A DNA stretch of 56,324 bases, filler included, from Platydemus manokwari (lineage: Eukaryota): the NCBI GenBank assembly GCA_037951405.1. It is 5 parts of 5 records of this genome, joined end to end, with 100 filler letters (N's around TTAATTAATTAA, not from the genome) between each part and the next. Parts side by side here need not be neighbours in the genome. Positions count along the whole stretch, not along the records: positions 31,701 to 42,339 come from JBBMOY011117552.1; 4 more parts are not named here. One strand, 5' to 3'. Of the stretch, positions 7,082-42,439 are shown piece by piece (positions within the stretch are counted from its first letter, which is position 1; the number at the start of each line of letters is the position of its first letter). A model generated the notes under the pieces. The model was not told where the DNA came from and made no database searches. It worked only from the letters and a program-made list of their open reading frames with translations. A program made the translations under genes and the position numbers.

Positions 7082-8471
7082 TCACTTTTTTGAATATTTC
7101 CCATGTATCGGAGCACCTGATTTATTGGCGGCTGCAACAATAGCAGCTACAACTTCGGGATTGTTAAGGATGTTTAAAGCGGTATTTGCTGCTGACCCAT
7201 GCTGATTTGGGTCTGTATATTGATTCATGTAATTCTGGTGCATCATCTCTTGACTAGCATACCCTTGTTGAAGTGCTTCTTGACCTGCTCTGTTGCCATT
7301 GGCTACCATATATGTTTGACCATGACCAGCTATAAGACCTGAATAGGCACCATATGTATTGTTTGTATTCACTCTTGCTTTTTGAGCAGCAGCAATATCA
7401 TAACTTGGTGGCCAAGCAGCCCCATATGTTGGTATCATACCTGGAGCATATCGAGTTTGGTATGTTTGTGTTTGCATTCCAGAATCGGGGTACATTGAAA
7501 AATGTGACGCAATACCTTTTCTATTACTATTAATTTTTGGCACAGCGCTACCTATAGTCAAAGTATGACCATTTATGGTTACCGTTTGACCGATAAGTGC
7601 CTGAGCAGCATCACTGGAGTCAAATGTAACAAAAGCAAAATTTCTGAAGGGTTTTGGTATAAATATATCTGTCACATAACCATATTGCTCGAATGCTATT
7701 CGTAAATCTTCCATTGAAATATCTTCTGAAGCATATCCTACGTGGATCTTTTTCGATATTTCTTGTTTATCAGCCTCATTCTGAATTAAAACGAACATCT
7801 TTACATCGATATTCAACAACAAACTACATTACTTTTGAAAATGGTACTTTAACTGCACACCACCTCCCATCAATCAAATGTTTTTCAGCCAAGCATAAAA
7901 CTTGTGATTCATAATCGGCAAATCTTATAAATGCGTATCCTTTACTGTGACTAGTTTCTCTATCTTTTTTAACCTATATAAAATTTTTGATAAACAGTAA
8001 TAATCATATTATTACTTGAACAAGAACTAATTCTCCAAATTTACCGAAATATTTTCGCAATGTTTCTTCATCCACTTTCCATCCTAGATTCAAGACAATC
8101 AGGTCAGTACATTTTCTGCCCTCCAATCTTTTGGATTTCTGAAGGGGCTTTTCTACTTCCTCATCAATTTTGCGTTTATTATTATTGTCTGATTTAATTC
8201 AATCAGATTTAAAACAATCAGATGAATATATTATACCTTTGGCAAAAACACAATAAAATTTTAGGGATTGCCAGCCTTCCACGGGTTTATAAAATTTACC
8301 ATCAGATAGTTTGAGGGCTCTGAAGGTATTTGTTTCTGGGGCACGGTATTTTAAACCACAGACATTTGGAAAGATTCCTCCTAAAGTTGTCAACAAAACA
8401 GTGTCATCACTCTCGACAGGAATTTCAATTGTTTCCGAATCTTCATATTCACAAACTGCTATGTAGTACAT
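7082..8471 (-). CDS. TARDBP: TAR DNA-binding protein 43 (TDP-43) orthologue, 415 aa; exons 8471-8237, 8188-8016, 7973-7833, 7780-7082
   Basis: N-terminal domain (IEIPVESDDTVLLTTL..FP..CGLKYR), bipartite NLS (KRK...KSKR), RRM1 (DLIVLNLGWK, SKGYAFIRF, HLIDGRWC), RRM2 (DIFIPKPFRNFAFVTF) and a Q/N/G/A/Y-rich tail. Three GT-AG introns of 48, 42 and 52 nt keep the frame (1248 nt = 416 codons) and fall at positions matching human TARDBP (K-D, VQ|VKKD, SK|). Confidence 0.96.
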
Positions 8472-9537
8472 TTTAATAAATATGGATAAAGTAACGATCA
8501 ATGGTATAGTAATAAATGTTTATTTATTTATAAATAATTTAAATAAATTAAAACAAAAATTTATAATATTGGTGTAAATTAAATTAAGCTAAGAAATAAT
8601 CAACTCTAATGTTTAAAAAATTGTTTAGGCAGTTCACGTGACTTATCTTTATTTAAAGTTTTTTTGATTTTGTTAAGAAGTTTTTTAGAAATTAAGATAA
8701 TTTTCCAAAATTAATAAAACAAATTAATAAACATGTAGTATGATTAAATAAGTTTTCATTAAATTAATTTAATGTAGTTTTTTTATTAAAGTGAAATGAA
8801 AGCAATTGTGGTTTAAAATGTAAAATGATACTTTAATATATGTGAAAGCTTGTCTATTGAATAAAGAGTTTGCACGTAGAAGATATTCGAGTAATTTTAA
8901 ATTAAATAAAATTTGATGATCAAGATTTTCTTTATAAAAATGGTAAAAGCTTAAAAAATGAAATCAAAAAGAGTTAAAAGTTGATAAGTAAATTAATTAA
9001 CAATGTAATATGATTGTACATTCAATTTGGAGTTCGAAATAATTGTGCAATACTATGAGCATAAGGCTAAATTACAGCTATGTTGTGTTCACTCTGTTAA
9101 ACCCGAATAAAATAGTTACAATTGTTAAGTTAATCGTTGAAAAGTTATAATAACAAACAACAATTGTCAACAATTAGTAATGATACTTCTATTCAATCCA
9201 ACGCAAAATTATACAGAACATTAGCAGTTATTGATCGAAAAATGAATATGGACCTTTAAAAGAAAAATTGAATTCAAGAGATTTCACCTATTTCGTATAT
9301 ATTTTTTATTATATAATGTATAAATAATTTGTATAAACTCTTCTATAAACATTTAATAACTTTTCGTTTACTAACTTTTTTCAGAACATACTAACTCACT
9401 ATTAATTTTTCACATGTCAACAATTCGTGTTTTAAAAAATTCACTTAAAATTTGGCATAACAAATTTGCTCTCATAAATTAAATTAATTATAATTCTATT
9501 AATTTACTTACACTTCTATCGTCGGATTTTTAAGAAT

Positions 9538-9637
9538 NNNNNNNNNNNNNNNNNNNNNNNNNNNNNNNNNNNNNNNNNNNNTTAATTAATTAANNNNNNN
9601 NNNNNNNNNNNNNNNNNNNNNNNNNNNNNNNNNNNNN
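9538..9637. other. Artificial contig-joining spacer
   Basis: 44 N + TTAATTAATTAA (stop codons in all six frames) + 44 N; identical at four places. Confidence 0.97.
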
Positions 9638-10431
9638 AAAATTTTTTAAAAAATTAGAAAACAAGAATTTTTTTAAACTTGAAAAAGAATTTTAAAGAAG
9701 ATTTCTTTTCCGGTTTATAATAAATCTAAATGGTCTCACCAATGAAATCCGTCACGAACAACTGATTTAAAAATTAAGAGGATTATTTTTAGAAAGTTAA
9801 GCTTTTTAAATGGTTGAACTAATAAGTAATTGGAATATGATGATATTTATTGTAAGAACTCGAATTAAATCTATTCAAAACTTCGATTATACTAAATATT
9901 TTATATTTGAAAGTTAAAAAAAATAATAAAAATAAAGAAATTGATAAAGCATTTCGCGGATCGAAAATAAAATATATGAAAAAAACTAAATATTCACGGA
10001 AAAATAAATTAAAAAACAAATCAAGAAAAATATCAATAAAATAATACCATATACTCCCATGAAACCAAAACACAATCACATCAAGTGTCCACAATTAATT
10101 GGTTGCCATGGGGTGGCATCAGTCAAAGAATTAATTATTAAAAAACATAATAGATTAGAAATCCTATCCGATACTCATACACAGAAAAGATTACAAAGAA
10201 AATCTATCGGTGGACCTCAAGACTAAAGTTTAATCAGCAAACACTCATAAAACTCCTGATAACTGAAGAAAAAATACTGTGATGTATCAATGAGTGATTT
10301 GTGTTTAAAAATATTCCGCTGAATCATTTGATGTTTTTAATTATAAAATATAAAATCAGATAAAATTAACATTATGAACAGTTTAACTAATGAATTTGTA
10401 AAAATATCAAGAAAAATAAAAATAATCACAC

Positions 10432-10961
10432 CTTTTGGTAAAATTTATCTAAACTGGAATCTAACAATTCCATACAAATCCATACATCACCACCTTGAAA
10501 CATTGCACCATAACTGACAACAACATATTGACAATGAGTGCTGCGCATACTTATATTGAGGTCATTAAGCAGTCTTCGTTGCTCTCTATCATTCATTGAA
10601 CATCTGATCTTCTTTACTGCAAATATTAACTGAGATGGTTTGTGACGCATTTTCTCCACAATACCATATTGACCTTCACCTAATACATAAATAAATAAAA
10701 TTTAATTTGATAAATTTATTTATCATTTGTTTAAGAAAACATTGCACAAAAATACTTACCAAGTTTGTTAATGATTTCCATATCTTTTATAGCGACGACA
10801 ATTTTATTTCCATTTACCTTCACTTCGGTATGATCAGTTAAGCCTGCTACTGCATTTGTATTCAAAGCAACTGGCTGAATACTTTCACTTTGAACAGTCG
10901 CGTGTATAAAAGGTGGAGGACGAATTTTTTTATGCCCGCTATCCCCTCTCCCAGTAGACAT
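10432..10961 (-). CDS. MAP2K6: MAP kinase kinase of the MKK3/MKK6 (p38-activating) type, 5' part only; exons 10961-10760 and 10679-10432
   Basis: Spliced translation LGEGQYGIVEKMRHKPSQLIFAVKKIR...QRRLLNDLNISMRSTHC.YVV..YGAMFQGGDVWICMELLDSSLDKFYQK closely follows MKK3/6; N-terminal basic docking-like motif KKIRPPPF. No further exon found before the spacer at 9637. MAP2K3 versus MAP2K6 cannot be resolved. Confidence 0.9.
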
Positions 10962-11333: not shown

Positions 11334-11647
11334 GTTATAATATATCAGCAAACGATAATGTGAGAATATAATCTATTGTTTATCAATTTTAAAGTATTTG
11401 AGAAAGACCGGTAGTAATCCTATAGATATTTTATTATGTATGTAATGATTGATGTCATCAACAACAAAGCTAGCTGTCATAATATAATTCAATTGAACAG
11501 TTAAAATAAATTCGGAATCTTGTGGCTATCAATAAATTAATTTTCATTAGGTAAATTGGTCAGATAATTTTTGTGTATCAGTTTTATTTCTCAATTAGAA
11601 GCGATTACTAAACTATTTGACAATGGTCTTCAGAATAATATTTAATC

Positions 11648-12242
11648 ATGGTTTTACCGAAAGCGAAAATGCCCGAATCTAATCAAGTACCTCGAATGAC
11701 TAATCCAGTTGATTCTATAATGATGACAGTTCAACATAAAAACCTGTTACCATCAGCACCATCAATGAAAAATAAAGAAATTAAAATTCCTAAAACTAGT
11801 GCCTTTAACCCATATCCTGGACTGACTTCATTTTCCTCCAATTTATGTAAAAGAATCAACGTACTTCATCCCAATCCTTCAGTTCGTAGAACGGTATCTT
11901 TAGAAACAAAAGATCAACATGCCCTTAATCTTTTATGTACAACTGAAAAGCAACGTCAAACAAGGGAAAGATTTCATAATGCATATTCGAGATATTTCTA
12001 TGGCGATCCTGTTAATAAGGAGTTGTATAGGTAAGATCAATAATAAATCCATTATATTATATCTTTCTTTGTAAAGGAAGTATCTAAGGGAAAGTCTTAA
12101 AGAACAGATGACAGAAAGGGAATCTATAACTTCTTTCAGTCACAAATTGAAACAAATCGGTAATATATTTATCAATTTTAATGAGTATTTTTTATAATTT
12201 ATAATTTATTATTATTATAATTTATGATTTATTATTTATTAT

Positions 12243-12295
<53 letters not shown>

Positions 12296-26535: not shown

Positions 26536-29500
26536 GATTACGCCATACAGATTAATGCAATTACAAGGAATCAGCTACTAAAGAGCTTGTCGAAATAATC
26601 CAAGGAAGCTCTAAATTTCAATATTCGAAAATTCAATGGAAGAAACCCATATAAGGCTGCAAAGTGGATATGTGATACTGAGGAGTGTCTATTAATTAAA
26701 ATTTCAGCCTGATTAGCGCATTCAATATATTGCTTTCAGACAAAGCAGGTATTCTTTGGAAAAATTTCATATCGGAAGATATCACGTAAGAGTCAGCTAA
26801 ATCGTGGTTTGAAGATACTTTCACAATCAAAAAATCTTTAATGTATATGATTATCGAACTTTTAAACGTTCAACAATCAGAGAGAGAACAGTTTTCCACC
26901 TTCGAGATATGGGTTCAGGAGTTGATGAATTCAGGATTGAAACAAGATTTCATTGTGAAAAATATCACTAGCAAGATAACACGATCAAATGGGTTAAAAG
27001 ACGTTCTTGCCCTAAACCAGACATGGATATCATAGAAATTAGGAGTGCTGCAAAAGTCTTCCAGAATCAAGAACAAAATTTACGAAATTTCCAGGCACTC
27101 AATACAATCCGTAGAGACAGCTACGCTCATGCACTAAAAAGCTGTTGGAATAACCAGTTCAAAAAAGAAAACAACGAATCAAGTAATTATAAACTATCAC
27201 ATACTATCAGAACACAAAACCCCAAGACAATCGATTTAGAACAGAAATTTGCTTCAGGTAGAGAGATATCAATGTATTCAATAAAATACATGGCCAAGTA
27301 ACTGTACAGTCGATTCATCACAATTTAACGTAAAATATACAGAGGAGGAAAGATCGAAACAAGCATTAAAAACTATAAAAACTGGGAACACGGGTATGAT
27401 TGAAAGATTCATCAAGGAATACGGAAAAATATTCATGGCTTCGAAATTGAATTAAGGCAGGACCAACTTAGTTATTTACGGTATTATAATAACCGAAAAT
27501 CCTATTTCGCAGAATCCCAGAAGACAGCTTGAGATTAGAAGTAAAAATTGAAGATATGATAAAAGTTTTTATCGAAATAAGAGTAATAATACCATGCAAG
27601 AGTGCTTGAAATTCACCACTAGTAATCGTAGGAAAAAAGGACGGATCTATCCGATGTACAAGGATTATCAAAGACTCAACGGAGTGACAAAAAAATTTTG
27701 ATGTTTGACAGACTGTTTGGCGGATGCTAAATTTTTCTTCACTATAGATTTCGGGCAAGCTTATTACCAAGTCGAACTACGTTTAAGATACCAAAATTGC
27801 ACAGCTTTTAGCACGAGAACCGGCCAACACTGTTTCAACAGGTTCTCATTTGGACTATATGCAGCGCAGTAACTTTTCTAAAACTAATGCGTAAGCTGTT
27901 AGATGGATTGATCTTTAAAGGTGTTGTGGTATATTTGGATGATGTGCTAATATACCATAAAACTCATGCAAAAGCATAACGACCTGCTAAAAGCCGTGTT
28001 CGACGAATTCAAAAGTTGGGTCTGAAAGTGAATAGGGGGACATGTACGATAATCAAAGATAAAGTGAGGTTTTTAGGCCACAAGGTCAGTACCAAGGGCA
28101 TACAGTCTAATTTCGGCAAAATCAAACAAAGAATAGATGTCCCAGTACCACAAGGTACTAGCAAACTGCAATCATTTTTAGGACTGACAAACTACTACAG
28201 GTGATTCATTAAGGATTATGCTTTAGTAGCGATGCCGCTATACTCGGCAACCACGGGTGGAGACAAGGAATTACAAGTTTTATGAAGCTAAAATCGGCAC
28301 TCTGTGGAGTACTAATTTTGGATTATCCGAGAGAAAATAGGATATTTGTACTCGATACTGACGCGAGTTTGATGTTATCTGTGCTGTTCTAAGTCAAGTT
28401 ACTGAAGAAGGAACAGAAGTAGTAGATTGCTGACTAGTCTCGAGAAAGGATATTGTGTTACCAGAAAGGAGCTTCTGGTTATTCATGAGTATGTTGTTTA
28501 CTTTGGACAATACTTTTACGCGAAGAAATTCATAGTGAGGACCGATAACAAAGCCCTTGTATTCTTGATTTCTCAATTTCAAACATGGATGGCGACGCTG
28601 TCAAAATATTATTTTGATTTAAGATATAGAAAAGGAGAGAATTGCATAGAATCTACGAGACATTATGTTCCCGAAAATCCAAGAAGTACAGCATAAAGAT
28701 GCAGAAATAGTGGAGACATTCAGATTTCTAAATGGTGAAACAACTCTAATTAGCGTGGAATTCTGGAATAAACCTTAACTTTCAAGAATTAAAGATAATC
28801 TGAAGGTGATCGACAATACCCTGATGCTGGAGAAAGAGGAGGGTTTGGCTATTATAATATCAAAAAAATTTTTTTATTTGCCCGACAAGTTAAACACAAT
28901 GAAGGAAATAGTCAAATAATGTATTATCTGTGAAAAGATAAAGGTTGATCAATTCAGAACTAAGGAGTTTCTGCTCTCTCGGTTAGGCTTTGGGTTTCAA
29001 GAGCAAATCTTGGTGGACATTGCCTAAATGGACACGATCTATGGTGACAAGAACTATCTATTAGTCATTATCGACAGATTTAGCAAGCTGAGGAGCCTCA
29101 CTGCTACATTTAACCAAGACGTAGAGAAAATTTTCCAGGTTATCTTGAAGTAATGGATTTGTCGTTTTGGAAAGCCAAAGAGCATTCTATCTGATAACGG
29201 GAAACAATTTGGAGGCAAATTTGGAGAGAGACGTGTTTAAAATCGTGAATCAAACAAGAATTCAGTTCACCATACCAGCATCAATCAAAAGGGCTAGCAG
29301 AAAGAGTCATCAGGACTATACGAGATATGATAACAGCTACCTTAAAGGGTGAGAGCCCAGACAATAGTTGGGCTGAATTGTTGCCAAGGATATAGTTCTA
29401 CATCAACGCAACGCATCAATCAACAACGAAGTTCTCGCCTTTCGAGATAATCTACTGGCGGAAGATCAATGTCTATACGCATGTGAGGCACAAGAACCAA

Positions 29501-29790
29501 ACTCGAAATGATATTGCAGCAGGCGCTAGAGAAAATTCTAAAGTGGTTGCTAACATAATGTTTAACCAAGGCAGTTGGAGAAGAACGCATCGAATTTTTT
29601 AGATAAGAGAGAACTTGCTAGTTCAGATAGATCCTCATAAGATGAAGAAGAATGGATACCAGTACGAAGGCCACTACCGAATTACTGGATTCAAGTCAGA
29701 CATGCAAGTGGAGATTTATTACCCTCATCCGATAAAATCCAGACGATTAGAGTGGCTGAAACTATGGAGGACTTAAGAAGAGGCGAATAA

Positions 29791-29898
29791 CGTGGTTAAA
29801 TAAATAAACACGTTGTACTTGTTTAAATAATTGATTGGCATATTAGATTAGCTTTTTAAATGAATATCATTTCTGCAAGTGTCATTGAAGTAACTATC
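29791..29898 (+). repeat. 3' LTR (about 108 bp)
   Basis: Diverged direct repeat of 26433-26535, preceded by a polypurine tract. Confidence 0.85.
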
Positions 29899-31600: not shown

Positions 31601-31700
31601 NNNNNNNNNNNNNNNNNNNNNNNNNNNNNNNNNNNNNNNNNNNNTTAATTAATTAANNNNNNNNNNNNNNNNNNNNNNNNNNNNNNNNNNNNNNNNNNNN
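31601..31700. other. Artificial contig-joining spacer
   Basis: 44 N + TTAATTAATTAA + 44 N. Confidence 0.97.
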
Positions 31701-32319
31701 TAAATAATAAAGCGTTTAATTGTTTTGATGCCATATTATGAGTTTAAATATTAATTTTATATATGCTATTCTTTTGTTTAAATAAATGAGATTCATGCAT
31801 ATCATCCTCCATAAAATTACTTTTTAACTATGCTTTTTAACTAGAAAATTGATTCTTCTAAATTCACCAACAGATTTTAATCCTCACAAATGTTAGATAT
31901 TTTCAAAACAATTTTATAATCACTCAGGTCACCAATTATTGATTTTTTGAACAATTTATTCCTCACAAATTTTCATTTGTCAAAATATTTTTAAAGTAAA
32001 TTAATCTACACTCCTGGCACCCATTGATGTTTTTGGGGCTTGTTTTGTTTATTTATTCTTTTATTCTATCAGTCTCTTTAATTCATATAAGATCATTGTT
32101 GTCTTGATCAGTCTCTATGAGTCATAATAAACCCCAAAGTACAATCTATTAAAACCTTATATTGGTTCTTTTTTCACCTCGCACAAAATATTAAATGGAG
32201 ATAATATGTGTGGCAACAATTATCTTGATGATTTTAAAACTAGTATGCTCAATATTGATTTATAACTATTAACCTCAATCAATGACGATCTCGTTTTACA
32301 ATATGTTTATTAATATAAC

Positions 32320-32700
32320 AACTATTACAACTAAAAACCGAATATATGAAAATGTTACCAGTAAACACGGATTATAAAAATGACAATGATTTTACAATTA
32401 GCTATTATACTAAGCGACCTTATCAAAATTCTGGACAAGAACACGGTTAATAAACTCTTTCTCTTGAAACAAAACCTTCACCTATCAAGGACATTGAAAT
32501 AAACTCGATATTAAGAAATATTCGATGACTATAATGCGAATCAATGGTTTAAATAAAAATCGGACTTACGTTACAAGATCAATGGCATATACAAATGGCA
32601 ATATGTCTGTCGAAATAGGTAGTGATTAACATATCTCTGAAAAGGGGCAAGATTGTGATTTTTGAACCTCTATTTATACGTTTTCACAACTGGATTTTAA
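32320..32700 (-). repeat. Dispersed ~400-bp repeat, copy B (LTR-like, antisense)
   Basis: Colinear similarity to 19850-20240. Confidence 0.45.
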
Positions 32701-34689
32701 TTGTTCCTAATTCTGGTTTATTTTGATAAATTTTATTTTATTCAATAGGAATTTCATGTTTGATAAAATTCTTACCCACGAATACATTTTATATTATTAA
32801 GCCCTTAGGTAAATATAAACATTATAAATAATTTTCCTATACCTTAAACCGTGTACTTAAATATTAATATTACTATTTTATTATATTAATTACATTGTCT
32901 AGAAGTTCTTTTTGGAAACTAAAAACATAAATTAATATGCATGTTCATTCAGAGAGATAAAAATTGTTACATTGAGTTAATACATATTAGCCAAATATAT
33001 AAAATCAATACATAATCGCTACATATATCAAAATAGTAACAATAAATGTTTAAAAATTGTCAATTCAGATGGAACTGTTGTACATAAAATATTGTTACAC
33101 AAGAATTATTGACGAATTGTTGATTCCGTAACAATAAAGTTGTAAGATATTGAAGTGCAAAGTGAAAAATTAACAGTTACGAGATAAAATTGTAGTTGAG
33201 GATTCAACCAGAAACTAATCGAGACTGATTACGGCAGCTGTGATCCTAGATGTGAATTCATTCAACAATATATCAATTAGGATAACCAAAAAACCTGACC
33301 GTAATAAATGGATATAAGATAAATAATAAAATCAATAAACAATTATTAAATAAATAAGTAGAATATTAAATAAAAAGTTAAAATAGAAACAATAATAATA
33401 AAATAGCAAAACGAAAAATGCTATACAGTTTATGAACAAACAAAAGCAGGTAGTAAATTAACAAAGCGAGAAAATTGCAATGTATTCTATGAAACAAACA
33501 TTTAAAATAGAGACATAACAATGGATAACATTGATAAAAATGGTATATGATGATTGTACAATTCTTAGCATTCATCCACAGAAATTTTATATCTATTTGG
33601 AAGCAGTGACCTTAAGAAGAAAAAATTTTCTTTACACTGGAAGAAAATTTGAAGTTTCTCAACTATGAAGATTTACGGGATTTTGAGTGAATGAAAAACC
33701 AACTTTTAATACCAGCTATATATAGAACTTTATTAATAATTCGTAACATTAAAGGCTTCATGTTGTTCCTCTACATCTCATTAAATTATCCGGTTTCTTA
33801 AATAAGTCTCACGAATATAAATTGTGGTTATTATTAATCTCTATTCAAAGCAAATAATATTAAAATTTATTGACTGTTGTGTACATACAGTAGCAAAACA
33901 ATTTGTTGAAGCTGGACAAACAATTATTGTGTCAACAGTTAACCCATATAAATCCTTTAGTAAATATTCACTTAAACCTTTGTTGGAGTTTCGACGACAT
34001 GATTTATTCAAATATGCAAAGAACCATCTATAAATGTTGATGAAAATTTATCTTTGTTTGATTCTATAATTAAGCCCAATTTTCATGTTTTGTACCAACG
34101 TATCATCATAATATTTTAATTATCTTTCATATTTATTAATACACGTCTTTCTGGAAGATCTAATCTAGTTGTGTTAATAAAGGATAAAATGTTTAATAAT
34201 TATTATAATAATACCAATAATAATAATAATAATGATAATAATATCAATAATAATATAATAATTATTATAAAAATTGATAGCCTATATTTTTACTTGGCTT
34301 GGCAACAAAATAACCCTTCAATAAAATATTCCAATGAAATAGCATTAGATAAAATCCTTTGGTTAATAATAACGATGTTGAATTTAATTCTATAGATGTC
34401 CATATTATGAGAATATTTGCCCATAATAATAAATTAAATAATTCAATTGAATTGAAAGAATATTGCTGCATTAATATGGAAATTAGAATCAAATAAACAA
34501 CAGCATAAATAAGCTAACAACATTTAGTTTACAGAACTATCTGTTACAATAAACTGATCTTAATTTGGAAACCACTACTGCAGTAGTTATCCAAAGTCCG
34601 TGAATCGAATAGTGTAAGTCATCAAATCAGCCAAACTCCTCAAACATCTTCGACAATAAAATACCCAGCAAATAACTTCGAGATAAATT

Positions 34690-35078
34690 TAATATTGCTA
34701 TATTTCTTGAAATTTCTGAAAGATCATCCTATATATCTCTGTACCGGGATACTGATGAGGCCTATGGAAGGCCGAAATAGGACTAATTTTTAAACAAAAG
34801 GTAATTTATTTATTTATTTATTGTATCTTGATCACTTAACAATTTTATTAATCATTTGCTTTTCCAGACGTTATAGTCAATCTCTTGTTGTTCAAGTGTA
34901 TAAAAGCATTCGTAAATTTCGTATTAAGTGTTTAACTGTATTTTAATATCAATAAAACAATATTTAAAACAAAAAGCGCTTCATTAATGAAGTTGGTAAG
35001 TGCCATAAGGTAACATCTCATTTACAATAAATTCATAACCTTCAGTATCAAATTATTACCTTTTGGTAAGGCTCGATC
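34690..35078 (+). repeat. Ribozyme-bearing dispersed repeat, copy 1
   Basis: Aligns by eye along its length with 41582-41931 (GCCGAAATAG.ACTAATTTTTAAACAAAA, TTGTATCTTGATCACT, CAGTATCAAATTATTAC.TTTTGGTAAGGCT.GATC). Confidence 0.9.
34727..34782 (+). ncRNA. Type III hammerhead ribozyme
   Basis: Stem III TCCTAT (34727-32) / ATAGGA (34777-82); AUA cleavage triplet with predicted cut after 34733; stem I TATCTC/GGGATA with loop TGTACC; core CTGATGA (34752-58); stem II GGCCT/AGGCC with loop ATGGA; GAAA (34774-77). Confidence 0.88.
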
Positions 35079-35269
35079 GAGGCTATTAGGAATAAAAGTC
35101 TTCGGACATGTAAAAGAGTTTATCGAGGTTAAGAAACATCCTATTATGATGTTCGTGATTACCTGTGGATCAAAAACAAAGACCCAAAATAAGCAACAAA
35201 TTTATCATTAAAGCAGATTTGGTATGTGTAACTATAGCGCTTTATAGTTAGTGCAATATTTTCAACTTA

Positions 35270-36943
35270 TGTTAATAGTATAAAATAATTCTTCGATACC
35301 TTCCAAATGTCAGAATAGTTACCAGCAGAATATCGGAACCATAAATATTTTATACAAGTGTTTTTCTGGAAATGAAAAATTAAATATAAGAATAATATCC
35401 GGTTAGCCATATAAAATGTGAATGTTTTCTTAAAATATTGTTTAGTTATCACTCAAAATTTTGTAAAAATTTGTGGTTAAGCAAATCATCTACAGGTGTT
35501 CTCAATATCGAAATAGGAATCTTCCAAACCTCTTTCAGACAGAAAATGTCCTTCAGGTAATTTTTATAATCTATTATTCGAAAAAGTTTGATTTTGTTCA
35601 AAATATAAATAAAATATATTTTTTTAGTATTTAATCCCATTTGAGTGTCGCAAAGAGTTGTTTGATTATTTCTTTGATAAGTTTGAGCGCATTGTGACAG
35701 CTCATGGATGGAATAATAATTTAAAAAATGCGGTTGCCGCTATATTTAAGGATTTAGTTAAGGCGCTAAGAAAACGAATAGTATTGGATTTGGATCTGCA
35801 TATATATTATGTCAGGCAATTTGTGGACAGATATGTCAGTGTTCAGGTGAAGGGGCGCAAGAATATGCAATGCAATTAACCAAGTTAGCAGAAAAGGCAT
35901 ATTATGACACATTGATTACAAAGGATGGAAGAAACAGAATAATAATGGATCAAATCAAAAGGGGAATTAATAGTGCATTCAAGACTACGCCGGCAAAAGC
36001 GGGATGTTCAACGTTGGAAAATTTAATATTAAAGGCGCGTTGACTGAAATTAACTTGTGGGATGGGTTTCCCGCAGAGAATGTTGGTGCATTTGCGGAAC
36101 CAGAGCGATTAAGTGCGCCGCCCAAGTCAAATCTTCCAAATCTCTTTCACACGGTAAATGTCCTTCGGGTAATTTATATTCTTCGAAAATGTTTGATTAT
36201 GTTCAAGATATCGATTTCTTCTTTACCATTAAATGGAGGAATTCCTTTTTAATTCAATATAGAAATATCGATTATATTAAATAATTTTATACCTATTGCT
36301 ATGGCAATCATTGTTGCTCCAAACGACCAAATGTCTGATTGAATCACATATGGTTGCTTATTACATACCTCTGGAGCCATATATCGGCATGACAACTCAT
36401 TCGATTCTTCCGATCTTTTTAATTGGAATGATTTATCTGAATCATGTTCGTATTTTGTTACACCAAAGTTTGTTTCGCCCATTTAGCAACTTGATGTTCC
36501 GATAATAGATTATCTCGATCAATATATTTCTTGATGAATCCCTAAATATAAGTACTTTATTTATATAAATGATTCTGGAATTTTCCCTTTAACTCCATCA
36601 TTTCCATCTCAATATAAAAGTGTTGATCTCTTTTATAAGCACCCTTCATTTGAACAAATCTCGGATGTGATTTCGTTGTCTGAAAGGTGGCCAATTCATT
36701 TAAAAAAGCCTCATTTTTCATCAGATCAGGAATCAGTTGATATCTTTTCAAAATTATATCTTCTTTTGTATATGAATTTTGACCTGTGAATATTTCGGAG
36801 AAATCACCTTTATTAATGGGTTCATTACTTGTGATATCGATTTTGCTAATACTAGACCAATTTATTATCCATACATATATGTTAACAATGAACTACTTCA
36901 TCAAATGACAAAATTGTATCTCTAAGCCATGTTCAAAATCCAT
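35270..36943 (-). pseudogene. Decayed Ser/Thr kinase (STE-like) pseudogene with tandem paralog fragments
   Basis: INKGDFSEIF, IILKR, FLNEL, HPRFVQMKGAY, IEMEMM, NFGVTK, CRYMAPEV, SDIWSFGAT, GIPPF, LLNHKFL. Stops and frameshifts; no HRD loop. Segment about 36130-36250 is duplicated at about 35520-35640. Confidence 0.75.
35640..36125 (+). mobile_element. gag-like LTR retrotransposon fragment lying between the kinase copies
   Basis: FDYFFDKFERIVTAHGW (capsid-like), IMDQIKRGI and degenerate zinc-knuckle-like stretches; higher GC than the flanks. Confidence 0.45.
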
Positions 36944-37095
36944 TTGAAAAATGAAATGAGAGTCTCATATATTTTTTATTGCAAAATAAGTCATTCTCAT
37001 CTGAAAGAAGTTTTATACATATTTTTCCATAATTACTAAAATCGTATCAATATTGCTGTATTCGATCTTCAGAGGACCTACATAATCGAAAATCG

Positions 37096-37905
37096 ATGGT
37101 ATCAGGAGAGATCCGGTTTTTCTGTAATAACTATGATAATTGTAAATCAATTAATAATATCCATACACATCAATCACTTGTATCCAATCATAATCTTTCA
37201 AATCTTTTAGTTCTCTCAAATCATTTAACGAATCTCCACAATCATGAAAAATCTTGTAAATCACTGAGATCGAATAATTTTGCAAACATTGTTACTAAAT
37301 CTGCAGCTTTTTTATTTTTGGTAATCAACACTGCCGAAGATGTCAAACGGAGCAGGAAACTGACGCTCATATCTTCATTCATTGTTCAGCAGTTCCTGGT
37401 CTGTCATCAAAAAGAAACTCAGTTATTCTAGATCATCTCGGCAAGTATCTTCAATCACTCGGACTGGACACGGACATCGACACAAACCCACCGGAAAGTA
37501 TTACTAAACTACGTTCGGATCTGATTATCAGAAACATAGAAAAAAGGCACGTGTACATCATCGACCTTAAGATCCCCTTCGATATTATTGAAAACTTCGA
37601 AATCCATCGAATTTTGAATTACGAAAAGTACCGATCAATTGCTTCAGAAACGAAAAGCAGATACGAAACCTCACTAGATGTACTATGCATAGGAGTACTT
37701 GGCTCATGGGACCCCAAAAACAACAAGGTTCTCAACAACATTGGTCTCGATAAACCCTAGATCACATACATCTCAGGATGTTAATTTTAGACAAACCTTT
37801 CTTGATGCAAACATCATTGAAACTGGCACATTCTTTATCATTCATGTAAAATGGACTCAATTTCGGACATTGACAAAGACAATATGGTATATAAGAAATT
37901 AAAAT
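37096..37905 (+). mobile_element. Internally deleted RLE-type non-LTR retrotransposon (NeSL/R5-like)
   Basis: Open frame 37320-37760: CRRCQTEQETDAHIFIHC (CCHC knuckle), LRSDLII...IIDLKIPFD...EKY (PD..D/K endonuclease with PD changed to SD) and IGVLGSWDPKN. Upstream Cys/His-rich segment; no RT. Confidence 0.85.
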
Positions 37906-39265
37906 ACAAATTAAGATTCTAGTCATGATGTTGCACTTAAAGATTTTGATTCAAATCCCAAAATGTAAGGTCAATGTTGATTCATTCAAACTTTTCAAAT
38001 TAATATAAACAATATTTTCGGTCGTATATTTAGTAGGAATATGTTTAAGAAAAATTACTCAATTTAAATAAAAAATATAATTTAATTTAATAAATGATTT
38101 AATTTTGATTCTAGTTTGATTTTAAACTTATCTTTAAAGTATATTGTTTCGGAATAATCAATTTATACATTGTATTTAGCAATCACCATTAAGAAATTTT
38201 GATTTGATTCTGATCATGCTTTTTCTATAATTTTTACATAAAGCATATCAAGATATTTGTTTCGCTAAATCTATTATTTGAATTTTAAAATAATATTTTC
38301 AAAAATAATATTTTAATAAGTTTGTCTATTATGAGTTTCTATTTAGTTTAATTTATTTTAAAGTATCATTTTAATAATAATTAATAGAAAATTTATTATT
38401 ATTATTATCTCTTAATTATAAATTCCAATTTTTTAGTGGTCATATTTACATTCATTTTTTATTTGTTCACTTAATTTATGCAATTCCACTTATCCGAAAA
38501 TTTTCTATTTCTTTCTTGCCTCTTATATTTACTTTTAATTGATATACAAGTGCTGGTAATAACCGGATGGTTAATTTGGTGCTATATTAATCACTAATGA
38601 TTCTTTCATCCTAGGTTATCATGATTGCTATTATCCTATTTTCCATGTTTGCACCTTTTCGATATTATCCCGCTTGTTGTTCATTATTTATGAATGAGTA
38701 TTTATGAATAATAAACATTAATCGGGATATTGTTTTGTTTGTCGGATTGATTGTGACCTGCTTAATTCTGAAAGTTTTGATTAACGTTGTAAATTTTGCT
38801 TTTTCGTTCATTCATCTCGGTTTTTCATTGAATAGGTATTGTTAGATTGTTTTTTGTGTTAGATAAAATCAATCAAAACACCAGTCAAGTGAAAATGCCA
38901 GATTTTTGCCGAATATTCAATATTTGAAATTGCACATTCTATGACCAGGTTTCAGATTTTATTCTTCAGTACTCCAATTTTCGCCAAAATTGTTTCTGAT
39001 GAGGCTGGAACTGTACCAAGCCTGTAATGCACGTGAGAAGCTCAAAATTTAAATATGGTTTCTATTAGGCTGTCTCATTCCTAAAATCGGTGTAATGGAT
39101 TATTTTATTTTTGTTTAACTCCTTGAAGTGTTGTAGCGTATCAATCGAACATTTCTACATCAGTGACCAATAAATCGGTGCACCTTATTCTATCCGGTAA
39201 CAATGAGCATATTTTATTTACTACTACAATAATATTTTTTAATCAATGACAATTAACAATTTTGT

Positions 39266-40560
39266 TTAGACGTGGATCATGCGTGTAGTTTGGTCATCAA
39301 AGTTCTCTGAATATAACGGTATACTCTCTATGTAAATTATGGCAAGTGGTACATTTGTTAACACCGTATTCATGAGTCTTTGAAATGTGGCTGGTGCTTC
39401 TGTAAATACAAAAGGCATCTTTACATAATCGTATAATCCCTGTTCTAGACAAAAAGCTGTTTTCTCTATGTCTTCTTCGGTGATTTTTACTTGATTATAA
39501 CCCTTGTTTAGGTCCAGTGTTGTTTTATATTTTGCTCCGTTTAACTTATCAAATATTTCCCTAATGTTTAGTAGCCGACATACATCCTGCTTTATTTCCT
39601 TATTCAACTGCATGTAATCTACGCATAATCGGACTTCTCAGTCTTTCTACGTTACTGAAACCATTTATGTTTATATGATCACGAGCTTATCCGAACACTT
39701 CCATGTGGCGTATCTGCTTTTTCGCTTTTTCTAATATCTTATATGGCATTCTTCTACTTGGTAACTTTCTCATTTGTAATTTTTATCCTTTGTTGTATAA
39801 ATTCCGTCGTCCCCAGATCATATTCATGTTTCGCTATAATATCATCATATTTACTATTATCTCTTGTAATCTTTGATTTTCTTTCTCGGTCAAGTTGTCA
39901 TCCGCTACTTTGATTTTTAGATAGTGTCTTATTTCGCCCAACACCGCGAACTGGTTACTATAAATTACTTTAGCCTTTGCACATCTTCCTAATATCATTC
40001 CTGTTCGCAGTATTTTGAAGTTGTTTCCATAGTTGGTAACTCTTAACGGGTAGTATCCGTCCTGCCATATTGCCAGAACGGAACTCATCTGAATTTCATC
40101 ATCCATCTGTCGTGATTCAAATAATTATCTTTTATTTGTAGCTTCCACCGGAATCATCAATACGCTTTCACATTTTGCCAATAACTGTACTATTTCTTGT
40201 ATTCTTATACTGGGATATTTGTTTATATGATATTTGTAAAGTCTGTAAATCCAAAACCACCCTTGTAAATTGTCTCAACAAATCCTATCAATTCAATCCT
40301 TCCGTTACCACCTTAAATACATGATCTATCTGAATGTTTCCGCATGCTATATTTACCATCACTTTCCCAGTTGTCTCAATCCTTTTACTTCCTGCTCCTA
40401 CAAGAACACCTTTATCTTTGTTAGATCGTACTCATTGAGTAATTTCTTTCTAATCATTGATGTCTCTGCCGCTGTGTCTATTAATGCTTTTTCTGACCTG
40501 TTGTTCATCAACACCGTCACTATGGGCCTATACCCTCTACCTGTTGCTGAACGTATGACA
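39266..40560 (-). mobile_element. Decayed Ty3/Gypsy protease-RT fragment
   Basis: Aspartic protease PIVTVLMNNRSEKALIDTAAETS (catalytic D at 40478), then RMPYK, RLCVDY, IFDKLNGAKYKTTLDLNKGYNQV, KTAF, YVKMPF..APATFQRLMN. YIDD has decayed to YIES; truncated after RT. Confidence 0.9.
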
Positions 40561-40801
40561 TACACATGTTTTATATCTCTGACTAACGGGTCTTACATTT
40601 CACTCATCATTTGTTTTTCCGGATAGTATTTGTTCACGTTCCTAAATGCTGGTATCGGCTGTTTGAATAGCTTCTATTTTCTTCCTCCATATTTCATTTC
40701 CCAAACATCATACCCTGATGGGCAGTTCCAAGGCATTTCTTGTTTCATCATTGGATTATAGAACCCCTGATTCCTCACTCTTTAATCATACATCCCTTTT
40801 C

Positions 40802-41575
40802 TTATTGGACTGTACATTCATGATAAGTCAATATCATATGCTTAGCTATTGGTGGACATATGCAACATAGTATTTTCCATGAACATCCTAAAATCTCTCG
40901 TAGCGTTTTCCCCGTCATTAGTGATGAGAATATCATTTTAATTATTACAACTATGCAATATATTTCAAAAAAGAAAGAAAATATCGCTCCTATTTCTTGA
41001 GATCTTCCATATAGACTATTAAATAGACTTTTCATTGCCTGATTGAAATGGTCTGCCGATAACAGGGCTTCATAATTTAATGTTTCCTCTATGCTTCCTC
41101 CTGATTACTTTCTGTCGCTGTATTGGGAACAACATATGTTTTCGTGCTTTCTCTATGTTTTCTGCTGCATAGATTCCGCTTTCGTCCATGTCCTTAATTG
41201 GTTGAAATTCTATATTCCCTGTTACTCCTAAGCTTTTTAGTACTAATATACCGCTCTTGATTTCTGATTCTCTGTTGAAACCCATCTTCCATCATCTGTC
41301 TTAAATAATGGATCCATCACGTTTGAACACTCATCTATCTTTGCGGCCTTATAATTTTCGCTCAAAATGATTCTTATTACTAGTTTATGAATACTCGCTT
41401 ATTATTGCATGTGATTGGCATCTCTTAGGTACAATATTTGTGTTTTCTTACCAATGAATTGTTTACCATTTTACACTGGAATGTATAAATGACTTATCCC
41501 ACTACTCTAGAAAATGTGCCTTTATCATAAAATATTAATGGGCTATCAATTCTGGATGCTGCCGATGCCATTGTT
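40802..41575 (-). pseudogene. Chuvirus-like viral glycoprotein (env-like), C-terminal half, disrupted
   Basis: Stitched translation: GTFSRVVG*VIYTFQCK...RKHKYCT*EMPITCNNKRVFIN.VIRII...ECSNVMDPLFKTDDGRW...ESGIYAAENIEKARKHMLFPIQRQKV...IGAIFSFFFEIYCIVVIIKMIFSSLMTGKTLREILGCSWKILCCICPPIAKHMIL. Motif order matches chuvirus G proteins as recalled; not searched. Confidence 0.72.
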
Positions 41576-41581
41576 ATACCC

Positions 41582-41931
41582 AACATTGCTATCGTTCTTG
41601 AAAGTTCCGAGAGATCGTCCGATATATATAGCCGAAATAGAACTAATTTTTAAACAAAAATAGTTTATTTATTTATTGTATCTTGATCACTAAACAATTG
41701 CATTAACCATTAGCTTTTCCAGAAGGTGTAGTCAAACTCCTGTCTTTTAAGTGTTAAAAAGTATTCTTAAATTTAATATTAAGCGTATAACTGTATTTTA
41801 ATAGCAATAAAATTGTATTTAAAAAAAATCGCTTCAATAACGAAGTTCGCAAGTTTCATAAGGTAATATCTCATGTACAATAAATTTATCACCGTCAGTA
41901 TCAAATTATTACATTTTGGTAAGGCTTGATC
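41582..41931 (+). repeat. Ribozyme-bearing dispersed repeat, copy 2 (ribozyme core deleted)
   Basis: Homologous to 34690-35078, but reads TCCGATATATATA-GCCGAAATAGAA, lacking most of stem I, CTGATGA and most of stem II. Confidence 0.88.
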
Positions 41932-42339
41932 AGTCTTCCTCAACGAATATATTTAAATCTCAACAATAATCAACCCTAAACCAACAATAATCAATCCTAA
42001 TCAACCCATAAATTAATCAATTCTAAATTCTCAAACAAGCATTAATCAATCCATTAAACAACCATCAAACCAATCGTCAAATCATCCTTATCATCAAATA
42101 ACGAAATTCCTGAACACTTCACTCAAATCATTCTCATCATCAAATAGCTAAATGCCAGAATCTACAAATCAATATCAATTCCAAAATTCCCAAATTGGTC
42201 ATCTTCAGTTTCAAGTAATTCCACAAATTCCGCATCAATAACCGAAACAATAGCATTTGATTTTTGCCGTGATTGGATTTTTAACAATATTTAATATTTA
42301 TTTTGTTATTTGTTATTCACTTACTTGCTTTTCTGAATT

Positions 42340-42439
42340 NNNNNNNNNNNNNNNNNNNNNNNNNNNNNNNNNNNNNNNNNNNNTTAATTAATTAANNNNN
42401 NNNNNNNNNNNNNNNNNNNNNNNNNNNNNNNNNNNNNNN
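42340..42439. other. Artificial contig-joining spacer
   Basis: 44 N + TTAATTAATTAA + 44 N. Confidence 0.97.

Follow-up and report, generated by a model that had tools for sequence, protein, structure and literature searches.

A decayed glycoprotein–protease–RT remnant

We found that a short interval of the window (the whole 56,324-nt stretch of DNA that was analysed) carries, on one strand, a class III fusion glycoprotein (G) gene directly upstream of an aspartic protease (PR) and a reverse transcriptase (RT). The remnant is very probably what is left of a Ty3/gypsy LTR retrotransposon that had a gB/chuvirus-type fusion gene ahead of PR and RT; this copy is decayed and truncated at both ends, and its ancestor was likely a Burro-like element with Gag-Env-PR-RT-RH-IN in a single polyprotein. 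The order G-linker-PR-RT is observed in the window itself and is confirmed far above chance; the single ORF, gag and LTRs of the intact ancestor would follow from its relatives. The parts of the locus, its borders and a second copy in the window are as follows.

39266–41575, minus strand: the whole finding, G, then linker, PR and RT, decayed
41582–41931, no strand assigned: repeat that borders the 5′ end of what remains of G and matches 34691–35078 at 84% identity (self-blastn)
40796–41607, minus strand: class III (gB/chuvirus-type) fusion G, C-terminal ~42% only (PF24664, our own G profile, colinear tblastn)
40928–40984, minus strand: transmembrane-like anchor of G (Kyte-Doolittle 19-mer mean 2.33)
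40546–40799, minus strand: coding-like linker of 254 nt; stops number 3 in its best frame, 5 and 9 in the other two
40225–40545, minus strand: aspartic protease remnant, frameshifted (RVP E 0.0087, below cut-off; pol profile positions 5–118)
39699–40226, minus strand: PR–RT spacer, homologous to the spacer of relatives (tblastn; pol profile 169–304)
39254–39673, minus strand: N-terminal part of a Ty3/gypsy-type RT (RVT_1 E 6.7e-9)
38796–39250, no strand assigned: unrelated, very high-copy repeat where the RT breaks off (contig depth; no pol-profile match)
20285–23466, plus strand: sister element, decayed, RT-RNase H-integrase-C-terminal region (Pfam RT_RNaseH and Integrase_H2C2; pol profiles)

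The homology of G is firm from about 41545 and weaker between 41607 and 41545. Six-frame translation of 38800–42340 shows the gene split over three frames by stops and frameshifts, and the N-terminal half, including the part that holds domains I–II, is missing. The G motifs quoted in the original prediction all lie on the minus strand where it had placed them (VIYTFQC at 41508, CT-stop-EMPI, DDGRW at 41296 and SGIY...MLFP at 41180), with the refinement that its G[E]VIYTFQC reads RVVG-stop-VIYTFQC, a stop occupying the position of the bracketed E. The transmembrane-like block that it described is the anchor at 40984–40928, which aligns to a hydrophobic stretch of the G profile. It had also described a coding-like linker of about 250 nt free of gag, LTR and PBS; the measured length is 254 nt, and a simple CA..TGG pattern for a PBS-like signal is unmatched within it. 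The linker is likely the cytosolic tail of G passing into the protease.

Downstream of the linker the decay continues. The active-site motif of the protease is altered near 40480, the PR–RT spacer also carries frameshifts and stops, the catalytic motif of the RT is altered near 39334, and RT homology stops near 39254. Compared with natural relatives, the protease is 47% identical to P0012 across 43 aa, the spacer is 23–31% identical to P0013, P0043, P0044 and P0023 by tblastn, and the RT is 42–50% identical to the RT of G-bearing polyproteins. Neither gag, RNase H, integrase nor LTR was assignable to the copy at 39254–41607 by tblastn with the polyproteins or by pol profiles. The copy is dead, with stops, frameshifts, altered catalytic motifs and both ends cut; since the N-terminal half of G, gag, RNase H and integrase are gone, and the frames and catalytic motifs that are left are broken, it is incapable of its ancestor's function.

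The repeat that cuts the RT is of a very different abundance from the locus, with a summed contig depth of 22,000–23,000 at 38796–39059 versus 11–18 for contigs identical to the locus. At the other end, the border between G and the repeat 41582–41931 is uncertain by about 60 nt, and the last 46 nt of the repeat overlap the weak edge of the G match. We tried this repeat as the missing N-terminal part of G and rejected it, as a tile search and a frameshift-aware G score stayed at null level (13.1 and 13.9 vs a null of 16.8 ± 2.2, n = 40); one tblastn alignment that reaches into it, from P0014, is gappy and scores 38.9 bits. It likewise failed as a plus-strand integrase, with no pol or IN profile match, and as one of an LTR pair with 34691–35078, the interval between them holding a kinase-like gene, a non-LTR fragment and a gag-like piece on the opposite strand.

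The window consists of five joined pieces, so neighbourhood across the spacers is unsure. The four 100-nt gap spacers (9538–9637, 18911–19010, 31601–31700 and 42340–42439) are identical, each made of N runs flanking a 12-nt stop-codon linker. The piece carrying the finding (31701–42339) has no N gap inside it, and its end at 42339 lies 730 nt ahead of G on the upstream side.

Identity of the encoded domains

The original prediction of a chuvirus-like glycoprotein on a Ty3/gypsy-type element, placed before PR and RT, is borne out by several lines of evidence. In a Pfam search of six frames with stops read as X, the Monjiviricetes_fusion family PF24664 (class III, gB-like) matched at E 4.5e-11 and 41.9 bits (cut-off 27), and a second frame matched the same family at E 5.2e-4. 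RVP (below cut-off) and RVT_1 matched the same minus strand, in order after G, and the three plus-strand frames of the finding stretch gave no Pfam match. A profile built from 14 natural G homologues matched 41607–40796 over its positions 352–627 of 658 (E 1e-9 to 1e-29); run against 4362 tiles of the window, it scored up to 84 bits on the G tiles and at best 6.8 bits elsewhere. Finally, the tblastn alignments of natural polyproteins on the window are colinear and keep the order G-PR-RT.

Natural relatives carry G within a pol polyprotein

We searched a database of 1.84 billion representatives by phmmer with one frame of the window G alone and obtained 22 matches, with PF24664 present in 21. 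An aspartic protease follows G in the same ORF in 12 of them; the remaining ten comprise six short G fragments (P0001 among them), two G proteins that stand alone, one spurious match and P0015, whose sequence stops behind G. The closest, P0001 (43%, 155 aa), stops shortly past the anchor and has no protease. Eight natural ORFs contain the full series G-PR-RT-RH-IN (P0007, P0013, P0023, P0026, P0043–P0045 and L001), P0023 and P0026 being cluster members. The guess that glycoprotein and pol were one polyprotein is thus matched by intact natural relatives, and the possibility raised with it, that the junction was a one-off, ran against the 12 of 22 matches with protease behind G. By these comparisons, the G–PR junction is the normal layout of the element family.

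Signs of gag precede G in several relatives: zf-CCHC in P0008, Retrotrans_gag in P0011, and two CCHC knuckles in L001, a metagenome contig with a polyprotein ORF of 3703 aa. Further domains include a Bcl-2-like domain before G in P0015 (E 1e-3), a ubiquitin-like domain in L001 (E 0.0025) and ankyrin in P0023 (4844 aa). The spacing in the window agrees with the intact forms. A conserved G motif lies 194 codons from the protease in the window and 147–281 aa from it in relatives (the motif was found in 10 of 17); the protease and the RT motif are 383 codons apart, vs 403–410 in 8 of 8 relatives. With its single protease and compact G-to-RT spacing, the window copy resembles P0007 and P0014. Hydrophobic segments, at the threshold used, follow G in 8/8 intact polyproteins and lie on both sides of it in 5/8.

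The relatives also have features of their own. Two to four aspartic protease domains occur per polyprotein in P0003, P0004, P0008, P0013, P0023, P0026 and P0043–P0046, some of the extra ones sitting behind integrase, against one in the window copy. Behind integrase, five of the eight intact polyproteins have at least two hydrophobic segments, which frame a domain of ~260–300 aa, seen at L001:9994–11016 and at the C-termini of P0007, P0026, P0043, P0044 and P0046. This domain is likely, judged by its segment pattern, a second type I membrane protein; it has no Pfam match, and the Atlas offers nothing beyond weak leads to fibronectin-III, none above 0.82. Behind the L001 polyprotein, 11375–13473 holds two extra ORFs, one with an RNase_T exonuclease match at E 0.001, below cut-off. 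P0007 (HBK71150.1), a complete G-PR-RT-RH-IN polyprotein, is labelled a hypothetical protein of a Flavobacteriaceae MAG; it probably comes from animal DNA that was placed in a bacterial bin.

Other searches returned little. A word-based protein search with the G frame gave 0/183 candidates, the frame being too broken for it; the G alignment found none among 23 stretches of viral_contigs, and P0012 none among 60 of genome_contigs. The metagenome scan for relatives yielded one in 201, L001. RT queries in viral_contigs returned only two loci, neither of which matches the G profile, and these were used as the outgroup.

Structure of the glycoprotein

The structure was modelled on the G ectodomain of the intact relative L001, with an 18-row alignment. 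The model reached a pLDDT of 74.9 and a pTM of 0.43, compared with a pLDDT of 30 for the single-sequence fold. Foldseek matched it to herpesvirus gB in the PDB (best E 2.2e-12, with gB the only protein among the matches listed) and to chuvirus-like glycoproteins in BFVD (best E 9e-34). The TM-scores of these matches are low (0.30–0.53), probably because domain positions differ between conformations, and the fold call is therefore carried by the Foldseek E-values. On this basis, the G of the relative models as a herpes-gB/chuvirus-like class III fold.

Origin of the glycoprotein and placement of the RT

Against its two best matches the C-terminal G piece of the window reaches 44% and 34% identity, and against polyprotein G 25–33%; the values are 26% for a Bemisia copy that stands alone and 25% for the G of Hubei lepidoptera virus 4; among the 22 G-frame matches the Bemisia copy ranks 16 and the viral G ranks 19. 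With thin viral sampling, these identities favour old inheritance within retroelements over fresh viral capture, and a fresh capture appears unlikely from them.

The RT tree has 14 rows and 140 columns, two near-identical outgroup rows and long window branches. In it the window RT and the copy at 20285–23466 are sisters with support of 100/99, and their lineage falls outside nine G-polyproteins at 89/94 (not starred), which leaves an open fork. The identity of the window RT to the G-polyproteins overlaps the 43% that it shows to the two outgroup elements, which we take to be F-type errantiviruses from their gag-pol-third ORF layout. In the sister copy, RH-IN is 28–33% identical to G-polyproteins vs 24–25% to the F-type errantiviruses, again on a long branch. 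From the trees we conclude only that the two window copies are sisters.

Alternative readings of the junction

An element of the same GAG-ENV-POL kind could have expressed env and pol as separate ORFs, divided by a stop or a programmed frameshift in the linker. We consider this unlikely, though it is the alternative to be taken most seriously. In the window, the end of G and the protease are in different frames, the closest match P0001 ends after the anchor, and a survey of errantiviruses treats GAG, ENV and POL as ORFs and, in the available part of its text, allows ENV–POL gaps of up to 2000 nt (Chary and Hayashi 2026, PMC13524379). However, frameshifts also lie inside G, PR and the spacer, so that a change of frame at the junction says little, and G and protease are fused in 12/22 matches, whose fused forms the window spacing fits.

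The original prediction proposed an independent chuvirus capture. A recent capture of this kind by a separate gypsy lineage would be consistent with the RT of the window, which sits on its own branch with the sister copy and not inside the sampled G-polyproteins, and with the report, in the portion of that survey available, that GAG-ENV-POL elements are not monophyletic in POL (PMC13524379). We nevertheless regard it as improbable, for the window G stands nearer to retroelement G (up to 44%) than to the named viral G, and RH-IN of the sister copy is nearer to the G-polyproteins than to the F-type errantiviruses. Least probable of all, and very much so, is a junction made once by deletion, nested insertion or assembly error, which brought the 3′ env of one element, or a viral EVE, up against pol from a different one. 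Other repeats do abut both ends of the remnant, and the window was assembled from pieces with N gaps. Yet the piece 31701–42339 is free of such gaps, the order and spacing agree with intact polyproteins, and a 1406-nt contig of run X1 spans 39739–41144 without a difference, which argues against an assembly slip, although X1 may be the source of the assembly and not independent of it. Among the matches listed, two further X1 contigs link the end of G to the linker side, weakly (44 and 23 nt). Run X1 gave 1263 contig placements over the stretch, most below 95% identity, with many diverged contigs on G, PR and RT; contig cover is lowest across the linker, at 47–57.

Other elements and genes in the window

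The sister element is 70% identical to the RT of the finding at the nucleotide level. It is 5′-truncated: no remains of G or PR were detected, and neither a tile search nor a frameshift-aware score gave a G signal upstream. A candidate G N-terminus at 19.9–20.2 kb was rejected at a score of 15.4, which is null level. The C-terminal region of its integrase is repeated a second time at 23177–23466 (plus strand).

The RT, RNase H and integrase at 26444–29894 (plus strand) belong to a third gypsy element, also decayed but more distant, which shows no G signal; it is framed by an 88-nt direct repeat of 84% identity, probably LTR remnants. On the strand opposite to the finding, 35628–36043 (plus strand) is a gag-like fragment with weak similarity to the L001 gag (E 7e-4), and 37299–37760 (plus strand) matches zf-RVT at E 0.003 and represents the 3′ terminus of a non-LTR element, followed by what we take to be a restriction-like endonuclease stretch. 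Between these, 36300–37100 (minus strand) matches Pkinase at E 5e-7 and is a gene or pseudogene of the protein kinase type.

Host genes with short introns, an RRM gene and an MKK3/6-like kinase, are found at 7082–8519 and 10426–10961 (both minus strand). The RRM gene is presumably TDP-43-like; its exon met only generic RRM clusters in the Atlas, under 0.9. For the MKK3/6-like exon, the 12 matches among 32 candidates fall on proteins of lamprey, mussel, fly, tick and nematode at 55–67% identity, a spread that points to no one phylum. By these similarities, the host genes of the window are animal.

Proposed working of the intact element

What is known of other class III fusogens and of viral polyproteins suggests how the ancestor might have worked. 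G would be preceded by a hydrophobic stretch acting as an internal signal, by which its ectodomain would be threaded into the ER; past the C-terminal anchor, the chain with PR-RT-RH-IN would be back in the cytosol. Signal peptidase and the element's own protease would then cut the parts of the polyprotein free, and G, as a fusogen of class III, could form trimers on enveloped particles, which might carry the element between cells.

A bolder proposal, which we hold to be doubtful, is that the window represents a separate env-before-pol gypsy lineage (no sampled G-polyprotein being more than 50% identical to its RT) from an animal phylum other than those of the nematodes, bryozoans and flatworms, one that extends or independently repeats the membrane-spanning Gag-Env-Pol design, and whose intact kin carry a second membrane protein behind integrase as a possible receptor-binding partner of the class III fusogen. 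The available portions of PMC6431247 and PMC13524379 contain no mention of a second membrane protein in this position.

Comparison with known systems

The original prediction regarded the family as undescribed, and this does not hold, as an env-before-pol design has been published for planarian Burro/GYPSM1 and for nematode, bryozoan and flatworm elements. Burro/GYPSM1 are giant planarian Ty3/gypsy LTR retrotransposons (Arkhipova and Yushenova 2019, PMC6431247). As described in the accessible part of that paper, their Env lies in frame between gag and PR-RT-RH-IN and matches mononegavirus fusion glycoproteins of arthropods and fish, a dUTPase-like stretch sits between PR and RT, cargo domains include Bcl-2, ubiquitin-like, BIR, ankyrin and MATH, and Dugesia japonica contains decaying fragments with stops and frameshifts. 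The relatives of the window element share env in frame before pol, together with Bcl-2-like, ubiquitin-like and ankyrin cargo. In contrast, the window remnant is 2.3 kb, with a compact G-to-RT region and one protease, and the size, LTRs, gag and cargo of its source are not visible there. By analogy, the window element would work like a Burro-type GAG-ENV-POL element, the likeness being to the published description rather than to Burro sequence.

According to the available text of PMC13524379, the errantiviruses of Nematoda, Bryozoa and Platyhelminthes have only HSV/gB-type ENV, in the order GAG-ENV-POL; its supplement 1 contains 10 bryozoan and 9 flatworm elements, all ENV_HSV, and the GAG-ENV-POL elements are not monophyletic. 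The window shares with them a Ty3/gypsy pol, a gB-type env and env before pol. In the window copy, env lies directly upstream of pol on the same strand across the 254-nt linker; gag is missing upstream of env, and is present there in the relatives P0008, P0011 and L001; and the pol order is PR-RT with the remainder cut off, the sister copy showing RT-RH-IN. By envelope type and gene order, the window copy belongs with the GAG-ENV-POL elements. It differs in that the published elements are intact and the window copy is dead. The same text, as far as available, makes no statement on ENV–POL fusion. Nematode ERVs with a metavirus-captured RNA-virus glycoprotein gene and ENV before POL are a further parallel, going by the title of Sacco et al. 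2022 (PMID 35550022) and its citation in PMC13524379.

Other captures of related glycoproteins differ in backbone or layout. Anakin is like the window element in having a chuvirus-type, gB-like glycoprotein on an LTR retrotransposon, in mosquitoes, and unlike it in its BEL/Pao backbone and arthropod host, as seen in the part of the account at hand (Dezordi et al. 2020, PMC7642597). The pol of the window does not appear as BEL/Pao-type, its RT being 42–50% identical to gypsy-type RT in a comparison with no BEL control sequence, and that of the sister copy is gypsy-like (RT_RNaseH and Integrase_H2C2 in Pfam). An Anakin-type glycoprotein, resembling the Chuviridae envelope, also adjoins gypsy POL in the account given by PMC13524379, and the available text of a 2023 study had found no clear gypsy capture in arthropods (PMC10084718). 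Dingle of Dimorphilus gyrociliatus is likewise a Ty3/gypsy element with a gB-like env, but there env is described as lying downstream of integrase (PMC7854359, in the part available).

The locus alone matters little, as it is a dead fragment of a published design, and the processing of a membrane-spanning polyprotein and the making of enveloped particles are questions for its intact natural relatives rather than for a broken copy. The gypsy layout with env inside the polyprotein is already published, and the window adds to it one more lineage and possibly a host group.
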